Assembly: GCA_041499545.1 (NCBI GenBank)
Contig: JBGQKK010000001.1
Coordinates: forward strand, 1 to 39,457
Reading direction: 5' to 3'
Length of the DNA: 39,457 nucleotides
Source of the DNA: Gammaproteobacteria bacterium
GTDB taxonomy: Bacteria > Pseudomonadota > Gammaproteobacteria > Burkholderiales > SG8-39
How positions within the stretch are numbered: position 1 is the first letter of the stretch; each line of letters starts with the position of its first letter. The translations under genes were made by a program, and so were the position numbers. The notes beneath the pieces are model-generated. The model saw nothing but the letters and a program-made list of their open reading frames with translations, did not search any database and had not been told where the DNA came from. This document shows, piece after piece, positions 4,843-12,744 of the stretch.

Positions 4843-5676
4843 ATGTGCCTGATCGCGCTTGCCTGGCGAACGCACCCGGCGTATCGGCTGATCGTCGCCG
4901 CCAATCGCGACGAATACTTCGGGCGGGCCTCCGCGCCCGCCGGCTTCTGGGACGACCACCGGGGCGTCCTGGCCGGGCGGGATCTCGAGGCCGGCGGAAC
5001 CTGGCTCGGCATCACCCTCGAGCGGCGGTTCGCCGCCCTGACCAACTATCGCAATCCGGCGGACAGGAAAGCGGGCGTGCCCTCCCGCGGCGCCCTGGTA
5101 TCGGATTTCCTCACTGGCAAGTCGTCGCCCTCCGAATATGTGAAGACGGTCGGGCGGCAGGCGATGAGTTACAACGGCTTCAGCCTGCTCGTGGGCGACG
5201 CCGACTCGCTGTGGTTCGTCTCCAATCGCGGCGATGGGCCGCTGCGCGTCGAGCCGGGCGTTCACGGCCTGTCGAACCATCTTCTGGACACGCCCTGGCC
5301 CAAGGTCGAAAAGGCCAAGGCGCGGCTCGCACAGCAGCTGGACAAGCCCTTCGACGCCAGCGCGGCGTTCGAGCTGCTGAGCGACACCGGGCACGCGCCA
5401 AGCGCCGAGCTCCCCAGCACCGGGGTGAGCCTCGAGCTGGAGGAAAGATTGTCGGCGATCCGCATTCTCGCCTCCGGCGGATACGGGACCCGTTGTTCCA
5501 CCGTGCTGTGCTTCGCGAGCGACGGCCGCGTCGAGTTCCACGAGCGGCGCTATCGCGAAGACGGCGGGACCGACGGAACGGTCAGCTATCGCTTGGCGCT
5601 TTTCCGGGGCGCAGCTCGAGCGTCATCTCGACGTGCGGAATCCCCGCCTCGAGGAACGCCCCTCCCCGCTCGTTGA
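4843..5676 (+). CDS. NRDE-family protein (TANGO2/DUF833-like)
   Basis: 277 aa. N-terminal MCLIALAW...IVAANRDE signature (Ntn-type Cys2 and the NRDE motif). Starts 4 nt after the DUF4936 stop. Confidence 0.85.
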   Translation: MCLIALAWRTHPAYRLIVAANRDEYFGRASAPAGFWDDHRGVLAGRDLEAGGTWLGITLERRFAALTNYRNPADRKAGVPSRGALVSDFLTGKSSPSEYVKTVGRQAMSYNGFSLLVGDADSLWFVSNRGDGPLRVEPGVHGLSNHLLDTPWPKVEKAKARLAQQLDKPFDASAAFELLSDTGHAPSAELPSTGVSLELEERLSAIRILASGGYGTRCSTVLCFASDGRVEFHERRYREDGGTDGTVSYRLALFRGAARASSRRAESPPRGTPLPAR

Positions 5677-6037
5677 AACCGAAACGGCGGTAGAAGCCCG
5701 CAGCCTGAATCTGGGCGTGGAGCATCGCGCGAGCCATTGAACGGGTGCGCGCACGGTCCAGCATTGCGCCGAGCAAGGCCGTCCCCACTCCCTGCCGTCG
5801 CCAGTCCTTGAGCACCGCCATGCGCCCGATGCGTCCGTCGGGCAGGAGGCGCGCGGTCCCGATCGGATCGCCCTTAGCGTCGAACGCCACCGCGTGGTCG
5901 CTCGGCTCGTCCCATTCGTCCCATTCCAGATCCTTCGGCACGCTCTGCTCTTCGACGAACACTCGCTCGCGCACCGGGCGCGCGAGCGGCAGCGCCTCGC
6001 GCCAAGACATGATCCGGATGGTGAACGGCACAGACAT
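5582..6037 (-). CDS. GNAT-family N-acetyltransferase
   Basis: 151 aa. Acetyl-CoA binding motif RRQGVGTALL and a C-terminal FYRRFGF motif. An alternative start is the Met at 6010. Confidence 0.85.
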   Translation of the reverse strand: MSVPFTIRIMSWREALPLARPVRERVFVEEQSVPKDLEWDEWDEPSDHAVAFDAKGDPIGTARLLPDGRIGRMAVLKDWRRQGVGTALLGAMLDRARTRSMARAMLHAQIQAAGFYRRFGFNERGGAFLEAGIPHVEMTLELRPGKAPSDS

Positions 6038-6045
6038 GAGCGCTT

Positions 6046-6051
6046 TATAAT
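6046..6051 (+). promoter_or_regulatory. consensus -10 box (TATAAT) 7 nt upstream of the aldolase-SDR ATG; candidate leaderless promoter
   Basis: Perfect TATAAT in the 21-bp gap between the divergent GNAT and aldolase-SDR genes. The spacer cctaccg has no Shine-Dalgarno. Confidence 0.4.
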
Positions 6052-6058
6052 CCTACCG

Positions 6059-8029
6059 ATGCAAAGCGCTTGGAAGGACGAGGAGGCGACGCAGTTTCAG
6101 GGGGACCTGGGCCTGCGCGTCTACACCTCGCGGCTGCTCGGCCGCGACAAGTCCCTGGTGCTGCACGGCGGCGGCAACACCTCGGTCAAGATCCGCGAAA
6201 AGAACCTCTTCGGCGAGGAGGAGACGGTCCTCTACGTCAAGGGCAGCGGCTGGGACCTGGAGACGATCGAGCCGCAGGGCTTCTCGCCGGTGCGGCTCGC
6301 GCACGTGCTGCGGCTGGCCGAGCTGCCTTCGCTCTCCGACCCCGAGATGGTCAACCAGCTCGTCACGCACATGCTGAAGGCGTCGGCCCCCGCGCCCTCG
6401 ATCGAAACGATCCTTCACGGTCTGATGCCTCAAAAGTTCGTGGACCACACGCACGCCGACGCGGTCCTGTCAGTGACCAACACGAAGGACGGAGAAAAGC
6501 GCATTCGCGAGATATACGGCAGGCGCTGTGTGGTGATTCCCTATCTCATCCCGGGATTCGATCTCGCTCAGTTCTGCGCGAAGGCATTCCGCGCGCAGGG
6601 GACGCCCGACACGGTGGGCATGGTGCTTCTGAATCACGGCATCTTTTCCTTCGGCGAGACCGCGCGCGAGTCCTACGAGCGCATGATCGAGCTCGTGACC
6701 CTCGCCGAGAAGTACCTCGAGTCGAGGGGTGCATGGTCGGTGAAACTGAAGCCGCCTGCACCTGGAACCGTGGATGTGGCGTCCCAAGCTCGCCTCAGGC
6801 GAGCACTCTCGGACACGGCCGGTACTCCGCTCATCCTCCGGACGACGATGAATGAACGCATGCTGGGCTTCGCCCGGCACCCCGACGTCGGCCGCATTTC
6901 GCAGCAGGGCCCCGCGACTCCCGATCACGTCATCCGCACCAAGCGCATACCTATGATCGGGACCGACCTCGCGCGCTACGTCGACGAATACAAGGCGTAC
7001 TTCGGCAAGCACGCCGCAGAGGCGAAGGAGCCCAAGACCATGCTCGACCCGGCCCCGCGGGTCGTGCTCGATCCCGGCTTCGGCCTCGCCGCCGCCGGCC
7101 GTACCGCGAAGGATGCGGCCATCGTGGACGAGATCTACGACCACACCATCGATGTGATCCTGCGCGCCGAGGCGCTCGGCGGATTCCAAGCCCTGCGGTC
7201 GAAGGACATTTTCGATGTCGAATACTGGGACCTGGAACAGGCGAAGCTCAAGAAAGGCGGCAAGCCCGCGGCCTTCGCCGGCGAAGTCGTAGTCGTTACC
7301 GGCGCCGCGTCCGGTATCGGCAAGGCGGCGGTAAGCGCCTTTCTTTCCCGCGGAGCCGCGGTAGTTGGGCTCGACCTCGACGCGAAGATCGAACCGCTGT
7401 ACGCGCGACCGGATTTCCTGGGTCTGCGCTGCGACGTCACCGACGAGGCGCAGATCAAAGTCGCCGTCGCCCGTGCGGTCGCCGCTTTCGGCGGAATCGA
7501 TATGCTGATTCTGAACGCCGGAATGTTCCCTGCGACGCGCAGAATCGCCGATCTGCCCACCGAGGAGTGGCGCAAATCGATGAGCGTGAATCTCGATGCG
7601 AACCTGCTGCTGATGCGTACCTGCCACCCTATCCTCAAGCTCGCGCCGCGCGGCGGCCGCGTGGTGGTCATCGGCTCGAAGAACGTGCCGGCGCCCGGGC
7701 CGGGCGCGTCGGCCTACTCGGCCTCGAAAGCGGGACTCAACCAGCTCGCGCGCATCGCCGCGCTCGAATGGGGCGCCGACGGCATTCGCATCAACACGCT
7801 GCATCCCAACGCGGTGTTCGACACCGGCCTGTGGACCGAAGAGGTGCTCGCGCAGCGGGCGAGGCAATACGGCATGACGGTCGAGGCCTACAAGACCAAC
7901 AACGTGCTGCGTACCGAGGTCACGAGCCGCGACGTCGCCGAGCTGGCGGCCGAGATGTGCGGACCGCTATTCGCCAAGACCACCGGCGCCCAAGTGCCCG
8001 TGGACGGCGGCAATGAACGCGTCATCTGA
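6059..8029 (+). CDS. bifunctional class II aldolase/adducin-domain protein fused to a short-chain dehydrogenase/reductase
   Basis: Start taken at ATG 6059 (MQSAWKDEEATQF...); the listed ORF 5894.. extends over the GNAT gene. The N-terminal part carries LHGGGNTSVK and VDHTHADAV (class II aldolase metal His). The C-terminal part carries VVVTGAASGIGKA (Rossmann fold), NAG and YSASKAG (SDR YxxxK). Confidence 0.85.
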   Translation: MQSAWKDEEATQFQGDLGLRVYTSRLLGRDKSLVLHGGGNTSVKIREKNLFGEEETVLYVKGSGWDLETIEPQGFSPVRLAHVLRLAELPSLSDPEMVNQLVTHMLKASAPAPSIETILHGLMPQKFVDHTHADAVLSVTNTKDGEKRIREIYGRRCVVIPYLIPGFDLAQFCAKAFRAQGTPDTVGMVLLNHGIFSFGETARESYERMIELVTLAEKYLESRGAWSVKLKPPAPGTVDVASQARLRRALSDTAGTPLILRTTMNERMLGFARHPDVGRISQQGPATPDHVIRTKRIPMIGTDLARYVDEYKAYFGKHAAEAKEPKTMLDPAPRVVLDPGFGLAAAGRTAKDAAIVDEIYDHTIDVILRAEALGGFQALRSKDIFDVEYWDLEQAKLKKGGKPAAFAGEVVVVTGAASGIGKAAVSAFLSRGAAVVGLDLDAKIEPLYARPDFLGLRCDVTDEAQIKVAVARAVAAFGGIDMLILNAGMFPATRRIADLPTEEWRKSMSVNLDANLLLMRTCHPILKLAPRGGRVVVIGSKNVPAPGPGASAYSASKAGLNQLARIAALEWGADGIRINTLHPNAVFDTGLWTEEVLAQRARQYGMTVEAYKTNNVLRTEVTSRDVAELAAEMCGPLFAKTTGAQVPVDGGNERVI

Positions 8030-9071
8030 GGCAAAGTCGGTCGAAACGCTGCGCTGGCGGGACGGCCGCCTCGAGCTGATCGACCAGCGCTTGCTGCCCG
8101 AGCGCTTCGAATACCTGAGCTGCACGAGCGCCGCCGAAGTCGCCGCGGCCATCCGCGTTATGGCGGTGCGCGGCGCTCCCGCGATCGGCTGCGCGGCGGC
8201 GTTCGGCATCGCGCTCGAAGCGCAGCGGCAAAGGCACCGCGCTCCGGCGCAATTCTCCGAGGCCATGGAAGCCGCGTTCGGAACTCTCGCCGGGAGCCGG
8301 CCCACCGCGGTCAACCTGTTCTGGGCGCTCGCTCGCATGCGCGAAGTGCTCGCGGCGCATCGAAACCAACCCGAAACCGCGGCTTCGGAGCTCGCGGCGG
8401 CCGCGCTCGCGCTGTTTCGCGCCGATCTCGAGACCAACCGCGCCATCGGGAAGGCCGGCGCGGCGCTCGTCCCCGACGGCGCGCGCGTCCTCACCCATTG
8501 CAACACCGGCGCCCTCGCGACCGCGGGACACGGAACGGCGCTCGGCGTGGTGCGCTCGGCGCGCGACGCGGGCAAGCGCATTTCGGTGATCGCCGGCGAA
8601 ACGCGCCCGTATCTGCAGGGTGCGCGCCTCACCGCCTGGGAGCTGATGCAGGAGGGGATTCCGGTCACGCTCGTCACCGACAGCACCGTGGGTCATCTCA
8701 TGAGCCGCGGCAAGGTGGACCTGGTGATCGTGGGAGCGGACCGCATCGCGGCGAACGGCGACGTCGCGAACAAGATCGGCACCTACACCGTCGCCGTGCT
8801 CGCGGAACGGCATCGCATCCCCTTCTATGTCGCAGCGCCCCTTTCCACCATCGACATCGAAGTCGCCGACGGCGCCTCGATCCCCATCGAGGAGCGCGGC
8901 GCGGCGGAAGTCACCGGCTACGGCGGGATGCGCTGGGCGCCCGAAGGAGTGGCAGTCGCCAACCCCGCCTTCGACATTACTCCGGCAGCGCTGGTAAGCG
9001 CGCTCTTTACCGAAAAGGGAGTCCTGGCACGGCCGAACGCGGAAAAGATCCGCGGGCTCTTCGCAGCATGA
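8013..9071 (+). CDS. mtnA: S-methyl-5-thioribose-1-phosphate isomerase (MtnA / 5-deoxyribose-1-P isomerase family)
   Basis: 352 aa. Motifs VRGAPAIG, HCNTGALATAGHGTALGV, ETRPYLQGARLTAWEL and GADRIAANGDVANKIGTY. Overlaps the upstream gene by 17 nt. Confidence 0.9.
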   Translation: MNASSEAKSVETLRWRDGRLELIDQRLLPERFEYLSCTSAAEVAAAIRVMAVRGAPAIGCAAAFGIALEAQRQRHRAPAQFSEAMEAAFGTLAGSRPTAVNLFWALARMREVLAAHRNQPETAASELAAAALALFRADLETNRAIGKAGAALVPDGARVLTHCNTGALATAGHGTALGVVRSARDAGKRISVIAGETRPYLQGARLTAWELMQEGIPVTLVTDSTVGHLMSRGKVDLVIVGADRIAANGDVANKIGTYTVAVLAERHRIPFYVAAPLSTIDIEVADGASIPIEERGAAEVTGYGGMRWAPEGVAVANPAFDITPAALVSALFTEKGVLARPNAEKIRGLFAA

Positions 9072-10537
9072 AGGCGGATACGGTGACCGCTCGAGTCCTC
9101 GGCGCCGCGTTCCTGCTGCTCCTCTCCGGGTGCGCGAGCCAGTACTTTCGCGACGCCGGGGCGCCTCCTTCGCCGCCGCCCCATTCGCTCGCGCAGCTTC
9201 GCCAGCCGGAGTATTGGACCGGAATCGTCTTCAACGGCGCGAAAATCGGCTTTTCGCATACGCGCGTCAGCCCCGCTTCGGGCGGGTTGTACGAGCTGCA
9301 GGGGGAAGCGGTTCTCCGCTTCCGGTTTCTCGGTTTCGAGAAGCGCGTGCAGGTGCGCTCGCTCGACACGGTCGACGAGAACGCGAAGCTGGTCCGTTTT
9401 GCGTATCACTATCTGCTCGACGAAACCGAGCAGGACCTGAGCGGCGAGGTGCGCGACGGCAGGCTGCGCTACCGGATATCGACGGCAAAGAGGCCTCCGG
9501 AGGAGAAGGAGGAAGCGCTGGCCGAGAGCCTCTATCCTTCCGGGGCGCTCGCTCTGCTCCCGGTGCTGGCTGGGCTGCGCGTCGGGAGCAAGTTCCAGTG
9601 GCTGGTATTCAACGGCGAGACCCAGGGCGTCGATCGGGCCGAGCAACGCGTCCTGGCTTACGAAAAGAGCGACCTATTCGAAGGCAGCGCCTTCAAGGTT
9701 CAGACCGACATGCTCGGCTTGCACACCACCACCTGGATTGACGAGCGAGGCCTGCCGGTCTTCGAGCTGGGATTGAACGGCGTCATCATCTCCGCGCTCG
9801 AGGAGGAGCGCGTCGCGAAGGGCTACCTTACGAGCGCGGCGCTCAACAAGGACGACGTGATCGTGAGCTGGAGCCTGATCCAGGCGCCTTTTCCGCTCGC
9901 CGACCCGCGCGAGGCCCGCTTCCTGCGTTTTGCCTTGCTCGATCCGGGGCAGCGGGCGCCCCTGTCCGATTCGCGCCAGAGCTGCGCGAGCTCCGCCCGC
10001 GATCTGGTGTGCGAAATCGATGCGACACGGCTGGCCGCGGGCGACGGGACCGGCGCGGCGGCGCTCCTGCCGTCTAACACGGTGCAAAGCCGCGATCCGA
10101 TGATTCGCAAGCTCGCGCAAGAGATCGCCGGGCTGCGGTCCTCGCCGGCCGACAAGATCGACGCGGTCCTGGCCTGGCTCGATCGGAACATCGGCAAGGA
10201 AGCGGTCGATACCTTCTCGGCGCTAGACGTGCTGGACGCGAGGCGTGCCGAGTGCCAGGGCCACGCCTATCTCTACGCGGCGCTGATGCGTGCGCTCGGC
10301 GTGCCGACTCGCGTGGTCAACGGGCTGGTGTATTCACCGGAACACAAGGGGTTTCTCTACCACACCTGGGCCGAGAGCCTGGTCGAAGGCGGTTGGCGGG
10401 CGGTCGACCCGACTTTCAACCAAGCCCAGGCCGACGCGACCCACATCGCGCTGGTGCGAGGCGAGAGCCTGGCCGACCTCACTCCGCTGGTCGAGTGGGT
10501 CGGCAGCACGCAGATCAAGGTGCTCGAGGCGCGCTAG
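9068..10537 (+). CDS. transglutaminase-like cysteine peptidase lipoprotein
   Basis: The ATG at 9068 overlaps the mtnA TGA (ATGA). Signal peptide with lipobox LLLSGC (Cys22). The C-terminal transglutaminase core has a Cys-His-Asp set (AECQGHAYLY ... LYHTWAE ... AVDPT). The listed ORF 8498.. is an upstream extension. Confidence 0.8.
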   Translation: MKADTVTARVLGAAFLLLLSGCASQYFRDAGAPPSPPPHSLAQLRQPEYWTGIVFNGAKIGFSHTRVSPASGGLYELQGEAVLRFRFLGFEKRVQVRSLDTVDENAKLVRFAYHYLLDETEQDLSGEVRDGRLRYRISTAKRPPEEKEEALAESLYPSGALALLPVLAGLRVGSKFQWLVFNGETQGVDRAEQRVLAYEKSDLFEGSAFKVQTDMLGLHTTTWIDERGLPVFELGLNGVIISALEEERVAKGYLTSAALNKDDVIVSWSLIQAPFPLADPREARFLRFALLDPGQRAPLSDSRQSCASSARDLVCEIDATRLAAGDGTGAAALLPSNTVQSRDPMIRKLAQEIAGLRSSPADKIDAVLAWLDRNIGKEAVDTFSALDVLDARRAECQGHAYLYAALMRALGVPTRVVNGLVYSPEHKGFLYHTWAESLVEGGWRAVDPTFNQAQADATHIALVRGESLADLTPLVEWVGSTQIKVLEAR

Positions 10538-10551
10538 CGCCCCGAGCTTGC

Positions 10552-12744
10552 TTACACCAGCTTGACGTTCTTCAGCGGCAGGCTGCGCACCGGCTTCCCG
10601 GTCGCGGCAAAGATCGCGTTCATCACCGAAGGCGCCACCACGCAGATGGTCGGCTCGCCCACCCCGCCCCAGAAGTCGTAGGTCGGCACGAGCACCGTCT
10701 CGATCTTCGGCATCTCGGCCAGGCGCAGGATCGGGTAGGTGTCGAAATTGAGCTCTACCATGCGACCCTTCTCGACCGTCATCTCGCCGTAGAAGGTCGC
10801 GCTAAGGCCGTAGGCCACCGAGCCCTCCACCTGCGCTGCGACCTGGTCCGGGTTGACGACGTGCCCGCAGTTGATCCCGAGCACCATGCGGTGCACCTTG
10901 ACCTTGCCCTCCTTGCTCACCGAGACCTCGGCGACCGCGGCCGAGTAGCTGCCGTAGCCCATGAATTGCGCGATGCCGCGGTGCACGCCTGCGGGCAGCG
11001 GCTTGCCCCAGCCCGCTTTTTCCGCCACCGCGTTCAGCACGCCAAGGTGCTTGGGATGGTTCTGCATCAGCGCACGGCGAAACTCGAGCGAGTCGGCGCC
11101 TGCCGCGCGCGCCACTTCCTCCATGAAGCACTCCAGGTACACGCCGTTCTGGTTCGTGTTGACGCCGCGCCACGGGCCGACCCGCATGTGCGTATTGCGC
11201 ATCGCATATTCGATCGCGAGGTTCGGCACCGTGTAGCCGAACTGCGCGTCTCCGGGCGCCTGCCACAGTCCCTGGAGCTGCCGGGTGTCCTTGCCTTCCT
11301 TGATCGCTCCCGGGTTCAGGTGCGCGTTGATCGACTGGCCGGAGACACGGATGTGCATGCCGACGAGCTTGCCGCTCGAATCGAGGCCGGCTGTGAGCTT
11401 GGACTGCGAAATCGGACGGTAGAAATCGTGCGCCTGGTCTTCCTCGCGGCTCCAGATCAGCTTGACCGGCGTACCCGGAAACTGCTTGGCGATGGCGACG
11501 GCCTGCCGGGTGTAGTCCTGCGTGCCCCCGCGCCGGCCGAATCCGCCGCCCAGGTCGAGCTTGTGGACCTCGCCGTTCGCGAGCGGCACGCCGGCCTCTT
11601 CGCAGGCGGCCGCGAGCGAACCCTCGGCGCTCTGGGTTGCGGTCCACACCTCGACCTTGTCCCCTTTCACCTGGGCCGTGCAGTTCATCGGCTCCATGGT
11701 CGCGTGGGACAGGAAGGGCGTGCTGTACACGGCCTCGACCTTCTTTGCGGCGCCAGCGATCGCCTTCTGCGCGTCGCCGATGTTAGTGTCGGCGAAGGCG
11801 TCGTTCGCCGTCAGGCCTTCCTTCAGGCGCTCGGCGATGGCGGCGCTCGATTGCGATCCGCCCGCGCCCTCGTTCCAGACGACGGGCAGCGTGTCGAGCG
11901 CGGTCTTCGCCCGCCACCAGGTATCGGCGACCACGGCGACCGCGTCGTCGTGCACCCTGACCACGCGCTTCACTCCGGGCAGGTTCGCAAGCTTCGCCTC
12001 GTCGTAGCTCGCGAGCTTGCCGCCGTGCACCGGGCACCTCTTGACGGCGGCGAGGAGCATGCCGGGCAGCTTGACGTCGATCGCGTAGACCTTGCTGCCG
12101 TTCAGCTTGTCGGCGGTGTCCAGGCGCTTCATCGGCTTGCCGGCGACCTTCCAGTTCTTCGGATCCTTCAGCTTGATGCTCGTCGGGTCGGGCGGGGTCA
12201 GCTTGGCCGCGGCGGCGGCGACTTTGCCATAACTGGTCTTGCGGCCCGAAGCTGCGTGGGTGATGACGCCGTCGGATACCGTCAGCTCGCCGACCGGAAC
12301 CTTCCATTCGTCGGCCGCCGCCTGCAGGAGCATGATGCGCGCCGCTGCGCCGCCGCGGCGCACGTAATCCTGTGACGTGCGGATGCCGCGGCTGCCGCCC
12401 GTGGCCATTTCGCCCCAGGCTCGCTTGCGGGCGAGATTCTGTCCGGGGAAGACGTGCTCGGTCGTGACTTTCTTCCAGTCGCACTCGAGCTCTTCGGCGA
12501 CCAGTTGGGCGAGGCCCGTGAGGGTGCCCTGCCCCATCTCGGAGCGCGCGATGCGGACGACGCAGACGTCGTCGGGCCGGACGACGACCCAGGTATTGAT
12601 CTCGGTTCCGGAGGCGCCTTGCGCCGCCGCTTCGCCGATGGCGAAGGGAAACGGGATTCCGAGGGCCAGGCCGCCGCCAGCGGCGGCGGAGCCGACGATG
12701 AACTTGCGGCGGGAAAGATTCGTGGATTGCGTATTCGTTTTCAT
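10552..12744 (-). CDS. molybdopterin-dependent oxidoreductase large subunit (IorB / aldehyde oxidase-xanthine dehydrogenase family), Tat-exported
   Basis: 730 aa. Twin-arginine signal NLSRRKFIVGSAAAGGGLALG...AAAQG. Aldehyde-oxidase/xanthine-dehydrogenase a/b hammerhead and MoCo-binding-like regions (GGGFGRRG). Confidence 0.85.
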   Translation of the reverse strand: MKTNTQSTNLSRRKFIVGSAAAGGGLALGIPFPFAIGEAAAQGASGTEINTWVVVRPDDVCVVRIARSEMGQGTLTGLAQLVAEELECDWKKVTTEHVFPGQNLARKRAWGEMATGGSRGIRTSQDYVRRGGAAARIMLLQAAADEWKVPVGELTVSDGVITHAASGRKTSYGKVAAAAAKLTPPDPTSIKLKDPKNWKVAGKPMKRLDTADKLNGSKVYAIDVKLPGMLLAAVKRCPVHGGKLASYDEAKLANLPGVKRVVRVHDDAVAVVADTWWRAKTALDTLPVVWNEGAGGSQSSAAIAERLKEGLTANDAFADTNIGDAQKAIAGAAKKVEAVYSTPFLSHATMEPMNCTAQVKGDKVEVWTATQSAEGSLAAACEEAGVPLANGEVHKLDLGGGFGRRGGTQDYTRQAVAIAKQFPGTPVKLIWSREEDQAHDFYRPISQSKLTAGLDSSGKLVGMHIRVSGQSINAHLNPGAIKEGKDTRQLQGLWQAPGDAQFGYTVPNLAIEYAMRNTHMRVGPWRGVNTNQNGVYLECFMEEVARAAGADSLEFRRALMQNHPKHLGVLNAVAEKAGWGKPLPAGVHRGIAQFMGYGSYSAAVAEVSVSKEGKVKVHRMVLGINCGHVVNPDQVAAQVEGSVAYGLSATFYGEMTVEKGRMVELNFDTYPILRLAEMPKIETVLVPTYDFWGGVGEPTICVVAPSVMNAIFAATGKPVRSLPLKNVKLV

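Follow-up and report, generated by a model that had tools for sequence, protein, structure and literature searches.

A fused class II aldolase/short-chain dehydrogenase encoded with mtnA as a candidate enzyme for the disposal of 5-methylthio- and 5-deoxyribulose-1-phosphate in Burkholderiales

Introduction

The stretch of DNA analyzed here (the window) comprises 39,457 nucleotides (nt) of contig JBGQKK010000001.1 in the assembly GCA_041499545.1, a gammaproteobacterium assigned to the order Burkholderiales (SG8-39). It contains a gene for a protein of 656 amino acids (aa) in which a class II aldolase domain is fused to a short-chain dehydrogenase/reductase (SDR) domain, and the end of this gene overlaps with the start of mtnA. 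We propose, with a probability of roughly 0.6, that the fusion protein cleaves 5-methylthio- and 5-deoxyribulose-1-phosphate to dihydroxyacetone phosphate (DHAP) and an aldehyde, which is then processed by the SDR domain. The protein would probably be a fused, non-orthologous enzyme that stands in for the aldolase of a known pathway, and probably also for its aldehyde-handling enzyme. Its substrate, the redox direction and any channelling between the domains are inferred, as is the aldol cleavage, which we deduce from gene context and phyletic pattern.

The use of S-adenosylmethionine (SAM) in polyamine, quorum-signal and radical-SAM chemistry leaves 5'-methylthioadenosine and 5'-deoxyadenosine, which need disposal. 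The DHAP shunt, reportedly described by North et al. in 2017 and 2020, is said to consist of MtnP or MtnN plus MtnK, followed by MtnA and the aldolase Ald2. The related 5-deoxyribose salvage employs an isomerase of the MtnA/DrdI type and a separate FucA-like aldolase, Ald2/DrdA (E.C. 4.1.2.62) (Beaudoin et al. 2018, PMC6079011). The same authors predicted that 5-deoxyribose can also be disposed of by an “unidentified aldolase” together with the methionine-salvage isomerase (PMC6079011). Many bacteria have no recognisable 5-deoxyribose disposal clusters, so that other strategies must exist. The enzyme reducing methylthioacetaldehyde in the DHAP shunt is stated to be unknown in a review from 2026 (PMC13474568). 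In the searchable literature we found no fused aldolase/SDR protein tied to mtnA or to the salvage of 5'-methylthioadenosine, and an earlier mention is possible.

Results and discussion

The source genome is a metagenome-assembled genome (MAG) of 2.93 Mb in 357 contigs with a completeness of 64%. The window has a G+C content of approximately 65-68%, and the closest loci found elsewhere belong to MAGs titled Burkholderiales, Betaproteobacteria or Gammaproteobacteria. Genes were annotated between positions 150 and 12744. The features on which the argument depends are the following:

6059..8029, + strand: fusion gene, class II aldolase/short-chain dehydrogenase (NF006196 family, RhaEW-like), 656 aa; ATG at 6059, stop codon 8027-8029
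6119..6715, + strand: class II (metal-dependent) aldolase domain, residues 21-219 (Pfam Aldolase_II)
6716..7285, + strand: connecting domain of about 190 aa, residues 220-409 (no Pfam family)
7286..8026, + strand: classical SDR domain, residues 410-656 (Pfam adh_short/adh_short_C2)
8013..9071, + strand: mtnA, S-methyl-5-thioribose-1-phosphate isomerase, 352 aa (TIGR00512, NF004326)

An earlier note on this DNA, made from the letters of the sequence, had described a 656-aa fusion whose gene overlaps by 17 nt with that of an MtnA-type isomerase. Both statements hold: the reading frame, its Pfam domains and all four motifs quoted in that note are present, and the overlap could be read directly from the sequence at 8013-8029. 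For the isomerase, TIGR00512 gives 447 bits (cut-off 279) and NF004326 gives 469 bits; the two genes are translationally coupled. A longer version of the fusion reading frame, starting from GTG at 5894 and giving 711 aa, was rejected, as it runs across the divergent neighbouring gene for a GNAT acetyltransferase and as the homologues all begin at the methionine of an MQSxW motif.

Domains and family of the fusion protein

Aldolase_II matches residues 21-219 (E 6e-23) and adh_short/adh_short_C2 match residues 410-651 (E ~1e-41 to 1e-44; adh_short 410-594). The aldolase domain (N-domain) carries the motifs HGGGNTSVK (residues 36-44, nt 6164-6190) and VDHTHADAV (residues 128-136, nt 6440-6466), and the SDR domain carries TGAASGIG (residues 414-421, nt 7298-7321) and YSASK (residues 553-557, nt 7715-7729). 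Within these domains the complete set of expected functional residues can be assigned: the phosphate loop HGGGNTS (36-42), the catalytic Glu116 of a PSxE motif and the metal-binding residues His130/His132 (VDHTHAD) and His193 (NHG) in the aldolase part, and LNAG (485-488), Ser540 and Tyr553-x3-Lys557 in the SDR part. Asp439 ends strand beta-2 of the SDR domain, which marks it as NAD rather than NADP type; an Asp at this position is a mark of the NAD-preferring classical SDRs. In an alignment of 34 homologues (61-88% identity) H130, H132, H193, E116 and the GGGNTS loop are invariant, and so are D439, S540, Y553 and K557. The connecting domain contributes two further invariant segments, QGPxTPDHxxRTK (283-295) and DIFDVEYWDLEQAKL (383-397).

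The protein matches the equivalog NF006196 “bifunctional aldolase/short-chain dehydrogenase” over residues 1-656 (the model has 657 positions) with 1075.1 bits (cut-off 831). TIGR02632 (RhaD_aldol-ADH, RhaEW) also aligns over the full length, with 444.7 bits, which is under its cut-off of 567.75. If the first 234 residues are scanned alone against NCBIfam, essentially just the fused families match. The best non-fusion match is MtnB with 18.5 bits (cut-off 137), followed by RhaD with 14.2 bits, and FucA-type models give no match at all; on the N-part of TIGR02632 the N-domain reaches 174 bits versus 18 on MtnB. The comparison of the N-domain with its candidate relatives, which had been proposed in the earlier note, therefore leads to a RhaEW-like fused family, barely to MtnB or RhaD, and to no FucA model. 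Residues 235-400 likewise match only the fused PRK08324 families and not a single Pfam family. Since both the N-domain and the connecting domain match just fused families, the fusion protein is a paralogue of RhaEW/YuxG and not a recent fusion of an Ald2 with a dehydrogenase. Close homologues bear the generic family name at NCBI, and at JGI the name [quoted passage not shown].

The AlphaFold model of the full-length protein has a pLDDT of 82 and a pTM of 0.82, and a model of the N-terminal 400 aa a pLDDT of 85. As modelled, the connecting domain is folded, with helices and strands between residues 240 and 373 and low confidence at 285-294 and 385-400; the 50 best Foldseek hits in the PDB include none to this domain. 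The sole close structure of the N-domain found by Foldseek against the PDB is 3m4r (TMt 0.94, 43% identity), which is also the single match of a sequence search against the PDB. The TMt values of characterised class II aldolases are only 0.5-0.7, the N-domain being equally distant from FucA, RhaD, an Aquifex FucA/MtnB-like protein, AraD, YgbL and pyruvic oxime dioxygenase. The SDR domain resembles NAD-dependent SDRs at a TMt of ~0.8.

Inventory of salvage genes in the genus and the order

To place the gene pair in its metabolic context, genes of the possible pathways were counted in 41 relatives, of which 25 belong to the same genus (several of them 93-98% complete) and 16 to other families of the same order. 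Within the genus the fusion (NF006196) occurs in 22 out of the 25 genomes, in some as fragments, MtnP in 24 and MtnA in 23. MtnB (TIGR03328) was over the cut-off in none of the 41 relatives, the acireductone dioxygenase MtnD/ARD (PF03079) was found in none at E <= 1e-5, and rhamnulokinase (TIGR02627) was over the cut-off in none and absent from the genus even at E <= 1e-10. A strong FucA-like Ald2 is missing from the genus as well, the best match having at most 75 bits. A RuBisCO-family protein, possibly a RuBisCO-like protein (RLP), occurs in one out of the 25 genus genomes, with a score typical of true RuBisCO. The genus makes the MtnA product, and the only known candidate for its consumption is the fusion protein, because MtnB, MtnD and Ald2 are absent from the genus and RuBisCO/RLP is limited to one genome. 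The earlier note had named a complete canonical MtnB-C-D pathway together with rhamnose genes as a finding that would account for both enzymes in another way; no such set was found in these genomes, and the inventory as a whole favours the reading proposed there.

The same note had stated that mtnB/C/D, mtnK/mtnP and rhamnose genes are absent. This is correct for the neighbourhood of the fusion-mtnA pair within the annotated part of the window, where none of them adjoins the pair. It does not extend to the genome: an mtnP gene lies on another contig of the source (G000:C40:6280-7008, − strand; locus L097, 3281-4009), and its product has a PNP_UDP_1 domain and scores 278.3 bits on TIGR01694 (cut-off 274.85). 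The compact two-gene route that had been envisaged must consequently be abandoned in that form, as it needs MtnP, which is encoded elsewhere in the genome. In several of the more complete genus genomes mtnP is located on the same contig approximately 36-38 kb from fusion-mtnA, i.e. it is syntenic and unclustered.

Outside the genus, MtnA is found in six out of the 16 genomes from other families of the order. In three of these six (G030, G037, G040) the fusion adjoins mtnA. In the other three (G026, G027, G034) mtnA is followed by a gene for a standalone FucA-like aldolase, with reading frames that overlap or nearly do so. Matched to NF005984, these aldolases reach 193-267 bits; the values are 244 bits for E. 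coli FucA and 170 bits for DrdA (6btd). The arrangement is the classical mtnA-ald2 pair of the DHAP shunt.

The genus has just two other class II aldolase-like genes, which lie in tandem and overlap, beside a gene for a hydantoinase/allantoinase-like amidohydrolase:

L096, 3235-3984 and 3948-4715 (G022:C45, same genus): tandem aldolase/adducin-family genes

These paralogues are present in many genus genomes and have weak best matches of the decarboxylase or epimerase type; they were not detected in the source genome, which is incomplete. They were rejected as unlikely equivalents of Ald2, being neither FucA-like nor near salvage genes.

Gene context in related loci

A scan of one genome per species gave at least 587 relatives of the fusion protein, of which the best 80 were fetched; ten of these had too little flanking sequence and one was skipped, leaving 69 usable loci. 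In 58 out of the 69, mtnA and/or mtnP lie within 3.5 kb of the fusion gene. The order fusion-mtnA is found in 44 out of the 80 loci, in Burkholderiales MAGs and usually behind a divergent GNAT gene, and in most related loci mtnA follows directly downstream at a distance from −13 to +180 nt. A second order, fusion-mtnP-apt-mtnA, occurs in five out of the 80 (Gallionellaceae, Sideroxydans, a MAG labelled Zetaproteobacteria, and others), and fusion-mtnP(-apt), with mtnA out of reach, in nine (Gallionellaceae, Nitrosomonadaceae and relatives). Together MtnP, Apt and MtnA convert 5'-methylthioadenosine to AMP (via adenine) and 5-methylthioribulose-1-phosphate. In the family tree the label “mtnA neighbour” appears in at least nine well-supported parts.

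A third and rarer arrangement was observed in two MAGs of the Rhodocyclaceae/Rhodocyclales, in which a gene for an MtnA-like protein (~47% identity to the MtnA of the window) is convergent to the fusion gene:

L063, 7499-8497, − strand: convergent MtnA-like gene
L078, 3110-3688, − strand: convergent MtnA-like gene

The pairing of the fusion with mtnA, to which the earlier note had drawn attention in a single sequence, is conserved in related loci, and mtnP and apt are further partners of the fusion. Outside Burkholderiales the genes are unlinked. Comparative genomics also supports the function predicted in that note, a fused aldolase-dehydrogenase in a route resembling the DHAP shunt, with the corrections that the protein is derived from RhaEW and that the linkage is specific to the lineage.

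Proposed pathway

According to the proposed model, MtnP, encoded on the other contig, would phosphorolyse 5'-methylthioadenosine and 5'-deoxyadenosine, and MtnA would isomerise the resulting ribose-1-phosphates to 5-methylthio-D-ribulose-1-phosphate and 5-deoxy-D-ribulose-1-phosphate, both of which are known products of MtnA-type isomerases (PMC10986504, PMC6079011). The N-terminal class II aldolase domain could then cleave the MtnA products to DHAP and 2-(methylthio)acetaldehyde or acetaldehyde, and the C-terminal NAD-type SDR domain might convert the reactive aldehyde at once. The aldehyde would most likely be oxidised with NAD+ to (methylthio)acetate or acetate, its reduction to the alcohol, the direction known from the described shunt, being less likely, since the characterised homologue RhaEW oxidises its aldehyde with NAD+. 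In a genus without MtnB and MtnD the fusion protein would handle both SAM by-products.

To our knowledge, canonical methionine salvage cannot turn 5'-deoxyadenosine into methionine. The fact that about half of the gammaproteobacterial carriers of the fusion described below have MtnB as well fits a role in 5'-deoxyadenosine disposal.

Comparison with known systems

The closest characterised proteins are RhaEW of Chloroflexus aurantiacus (Caur_2283) and of B. subtilis (YuxG), which convert L-rhamnulose-1-phosphate to DHAP and L-lactate with NAD+; RhaEW is inactive with NADH, and DHAP is not formed when NAD+ is omitted (Rodionova et al. 2013, PMC3870299). The window protein shares with them the succession of class II aldolase, connecting domain and classical SDR with homology over the full length, as well as the metal-binding site and the catalytic residues of the SDR. 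By analogy, the logic of the reaction could be the same, in that a deoxy-ketose-1-phosphate would be cleaved to DHAP and a small aldehyde which is processed at once. In contrast to RhaEW, the window protein belongs to the other equivalog, NF006196, is linked to mtnA, mtnP and apt, and was seen in no rha locus among the loci examined. Its proposed substrates are D-erythro 5-deoxy/5-methylthio pentulose-1-phosphates and not an L-threo 6-deoxyhexulose-1-phosphate.

The resemblance to the DHAP shunt lies in the presence of MtnP and MtnA, in an aldolase gene that forms an operon with mtnA, in the expected products (DHAP and acetaldehyde or methylthioacetaldehyde), and in genomes of the same order which carry the classical mtnA-ald2 pair at the corresponding position. 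Unlike in the DHAP shunt, the aldolase of the window is a distant, non-orthologous domain of the RhaE type from outside the Ald2/DrdA clade. Its fusion to a dehydrogenase would add the processing of the aldehyde, for which the described shunt has a separate enzyme (PMC13474568).

A precedent for the fusion of consecutive salvage steps is given by MtnB fusions such as Tetrahymena MtnBD and Arabidopsis DEP1. MtnB has the same class II aldolase fold and acts on the MtnA product, as is proposed for the window protein, and for DEP1 an aldolase activity on 5-deoxyribulose-1-phosphate was reported (PMC6079011). The MtnB fusions have a dioxygenase or phosphatase as partner, the window protein an SDR. 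Its sequence does not match MtnB to any meaningful extent, and MtnD is absent. The structure 3m4r, a structural-genomics entry, shows the N-terminal aldolase domain of a conserved Thermoplasma acidophilum protein, with the same HxH...H and PSxE motifs. It is uncharacterised and limited to the N-domain, and provides no information on the substrate of the fusion.

Class-level pattern

In a class-level sample of 251 genomes with a completeness of at least 90%, the fusion is present in 35 genomes spread over 33 genera, corresponding to ~14% of the sampled gammaproteobacterial species. MtnA is found in 142 out of the 251. It accompanies the fusion in 35 out of 35 cases compared to 107 out of the 216 genomes without fusion (Fisher p = 2.7e-10).

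Several observations speak against the cleavage of MtnA products by the fusion protein. With the source genome set apart, fusion and mtnA are separated in all 34 class-level carriers, either by lying on different contigs or by a distance above 0.5 Mb, and in none of 20 class-level loci do mtnA, mtnP or apt occur within 6 kb of the fusion. In six of these 20 loci the fusion is the last gene behind genes for a GlpK-like FGGY kinase, a GDPD-like protein and a shortened GlpD-like protein, all of them under the cut-offs of their families:

L102 (G188), L106 (G137), L108 (G101), L110 (G261), L111 (G182), L116 (G085): GlpK/GDPD/GlpD-like clusters, about 4 kb upstream of the fusion

MtnB is present in five out of these six genomes, and the cluster points to a second functional association of the NF006196 family. 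MtnB is also found in 17 out of the 35 fusion carriers, which is more than expected (odds ratio 6). MtnA without a partner is common, as 78 out of the 142 MtnA genomes lack both MtnB and the fusion, and the flanks of mtnA (8-9 kb) revealed no partner gene in 20 fusion-positive and 20 fusion-negative, MtnB-negative class-level genomes. All contexts interleave in a maximum-likelihood tree of 100 family members, so that the proteins from the differing contexts resemble a single group of orthologues. Owing to the phylogenetic relatedness of the 80 closest loci, their adjacency counts are not independent; 11 of these loci have no salvage gene as a neighbour.

A further group of objections concerns the chemistry. 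L-rhamnulose-1-phosphate has the configuration 3R,4S, whereas that of the MtnA products is D-erythro (3R,4R), the type acted on by FucA/Ald2. As the stereochemistry of the RhaE-type reaction and of the MtnA products differs, a change in stereospecificity at C4 must be assumed. Such a switch is visible neither in the sequence nor in the fold, and neither sequence nor structure of the N-domain points to a substrate. The function proposed for NF006196 is a prediction from genomic data, and none of the matching soil metatranscriptome contigs (see below) spans any gene junction.

Alternative explanations

The strongest rival explanation is that the fusion protein acts on a different ketose-1-phosphate, for example the product of the FGGY kinase encoded beside it in some Gammaproteobacteria, another deoxy-sugar or a glycerol-related compound. 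Its proximity to mtnA in Burkholderiales would then be due to co-regulation or to DHAP as a product of both routes, and not to MtnA supplying its substrate. We consider this unlikely, and a number of the observations just listed agree with it: the GlpK-like/GDPD-like/GlpD-like cluster which ends with the fusion in six out of the 20 class-level loci, the uninformative neighbours in the remaining 14 and in 11 of the 80 closest loci, the single interleaved family formed by sequences of different contexts, the retention of MtnB in 17 out of 35 carriers and an RhaE-type domain that is stereochemically wrong for D-erythro substrates. What it leaves unexplained are two independent operon architectures with mtnA, mtnP and apt, one of them with overlapping frames, as well as the co-occurrence with MtnA in 35 out of 35 genomes and the alternation with Ald2 beside mtnA. 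The genus would furthermore possess MtnP and MtnA without a consumer of their product, and a gene for an FGGY rhamnulokinase-type protein was not found in the genus at E <= 1e-10.

Two other functions can be considered. As an MtnB-like dehydratase, an alternative already raised in the earlier note, it would generate a 2,3-diketo compound that is reduced by the SDR domain, resulting in a non-canonical branch of methionine salvage. The shared class II aldolase fold, metal site and catalytic Glu of MtnB are compatible with this, as are its rank as best non-fusion NCBIfam match of the N-domain (at just 18.5 bits) and a genus without MtnB. We nevertheless regard it as very improbable: we know of no pathway with a reduced diketone, MtnD/ARD, which would be required next, is absent in 41 out of 41 relatives, a true MtnB is already present in half of the carriers, and the N-domain falls together with the RhaE domain of proven aldolases (174 versus 18 bits; PMC3870299). 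Still less can be said for an ordinary RhaEW, i.e. an L-rhamnulose-1-phosphate aldolase/L-lactaldehyde dehydrogenase of rhamnose catabolism, which we take to be a negligible option. It is suggested by the JGI product name of close homologues and by the full-length homology to TIGR02632. Against this, the score of 444.7 bits remains under the cut-off of that model while the cut-off of a different equivalog, NF006196, is exceeded, rhamnulokinase is found in none of the 41 relatives including the 25 genus genomes, and in the neighbour clustering of the related loci no rhamnose genes adjoin the fusion.

If the fusion protein does cleave 5-methylthio- and 5-deoxyribulose-1-phosphate, a broader statement suggests itself, for which we would put the chances somewhat below even: NF006196 may stand for a widespread version of the DHAP shunt not described before. 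Here a RhaEW-derived enzyme would replace Ald2 and the aldehyde-processing enzyme, perhaps with its two activities obligatorily coupled as they are in RhaEW. The products of this form would be DHAP and a carboxylic acid (acetate or (methylthio)acetate), made by one polypeptide. The fusion protein would then be the “unidentified aldolase” that allows the salvage phosphorylase and isomerase to dispose of 5'-deoxyadenosine as well, and such a role would explain its presence in about one in seven of the sampled gammaproteobacterial species, many of which keep MtnB. Both gaps noted in the literature would be filled for Burkholderiales of soil and freshwater, iron oxidisers and other Gammaproteobacteria (35 out of 251 sampled species). 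The common annotation as “rhamnose utilization protein RhaD” would have to be corrected, the family being probably mis-annotated, and the protein would offer a clean example of the RhaEW scaffold re-tuned to a deoxy-sugar phosphate of opposite C4 configuration. The fusion remains a variation on established chemistry.

Neighbouring genes and expression

The fusion and mtnA are surrounded by the following features:

5582..6037, − strand: GNAT acetyltransferase, divergent (Pfam Acetyltransf_10/1)
6046..6051, + strand: TATAAT hexamer, possible −10 element (read in the sequence)
9068..10537, + strand: lipoprotein with transglutaminase-like core, 489 aa (lipobox LLSGC; Transglut_core)
10552-12744, − strand: molybdopterin-binding subunit of a xanthine-dehydrogenase-family hydroxylase, 730 aa (MoCoBD_1/2)

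The GNAT gene lies 21 bp from the start of the fusion and matches no specific NCBIfam family. Among the closest related loci, most have a homologue immediately upstream of the fusion, which makes GNAT a conserved syntenic neighbour. Beyond it, genes for TANGO2-like, YgfZ, YceG, Tmk, HolB and TatD proteins follow upstream. The TATAAT hexamer is situated within the 21-bp gap, 7 nt before the ATG of the fusion, which has no obvious Shine-Dalgarno sequence; the fusion mRNA may be leaderless or near-leaderless. A promoter scan with two hexamers found no full sigma-70 site between 5400 and 10800, and no terminators above chance were detected in the same region.

Downstream, the ATG of the lipoprotein gene overlaps with the stop codon of mtnA (ATGA). 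Transglut_core matches the lipoprotein at residues 347-448 (E 8e-18), and a homologue follows mtnA in 16 related loci. The gene is probably co-translated with the salvage genes. We see no evident link of the lipoprotein to salvage chemistry, and its gene may stand outside the salvage pathway. The convergent gene for the 730-aa hydroxylase subunit ends 15 nt past the lipoprotein gene and is unrelated to the finding reported here.

Soil metatranscriptome contigs from 2017 and 2024, 150-360 nt in length and mostly 92-99% identical, match portions of all three genes, from the fusion through mtnA to the one for the lipoprotein (6700-10550); contigs with 97-99% identity are found for each of the three. 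Their depth peaks strongly at 8632-8805, a conserved segment of mtnA that is common to other organisms. Close relatives appear to express these three genes in soil.

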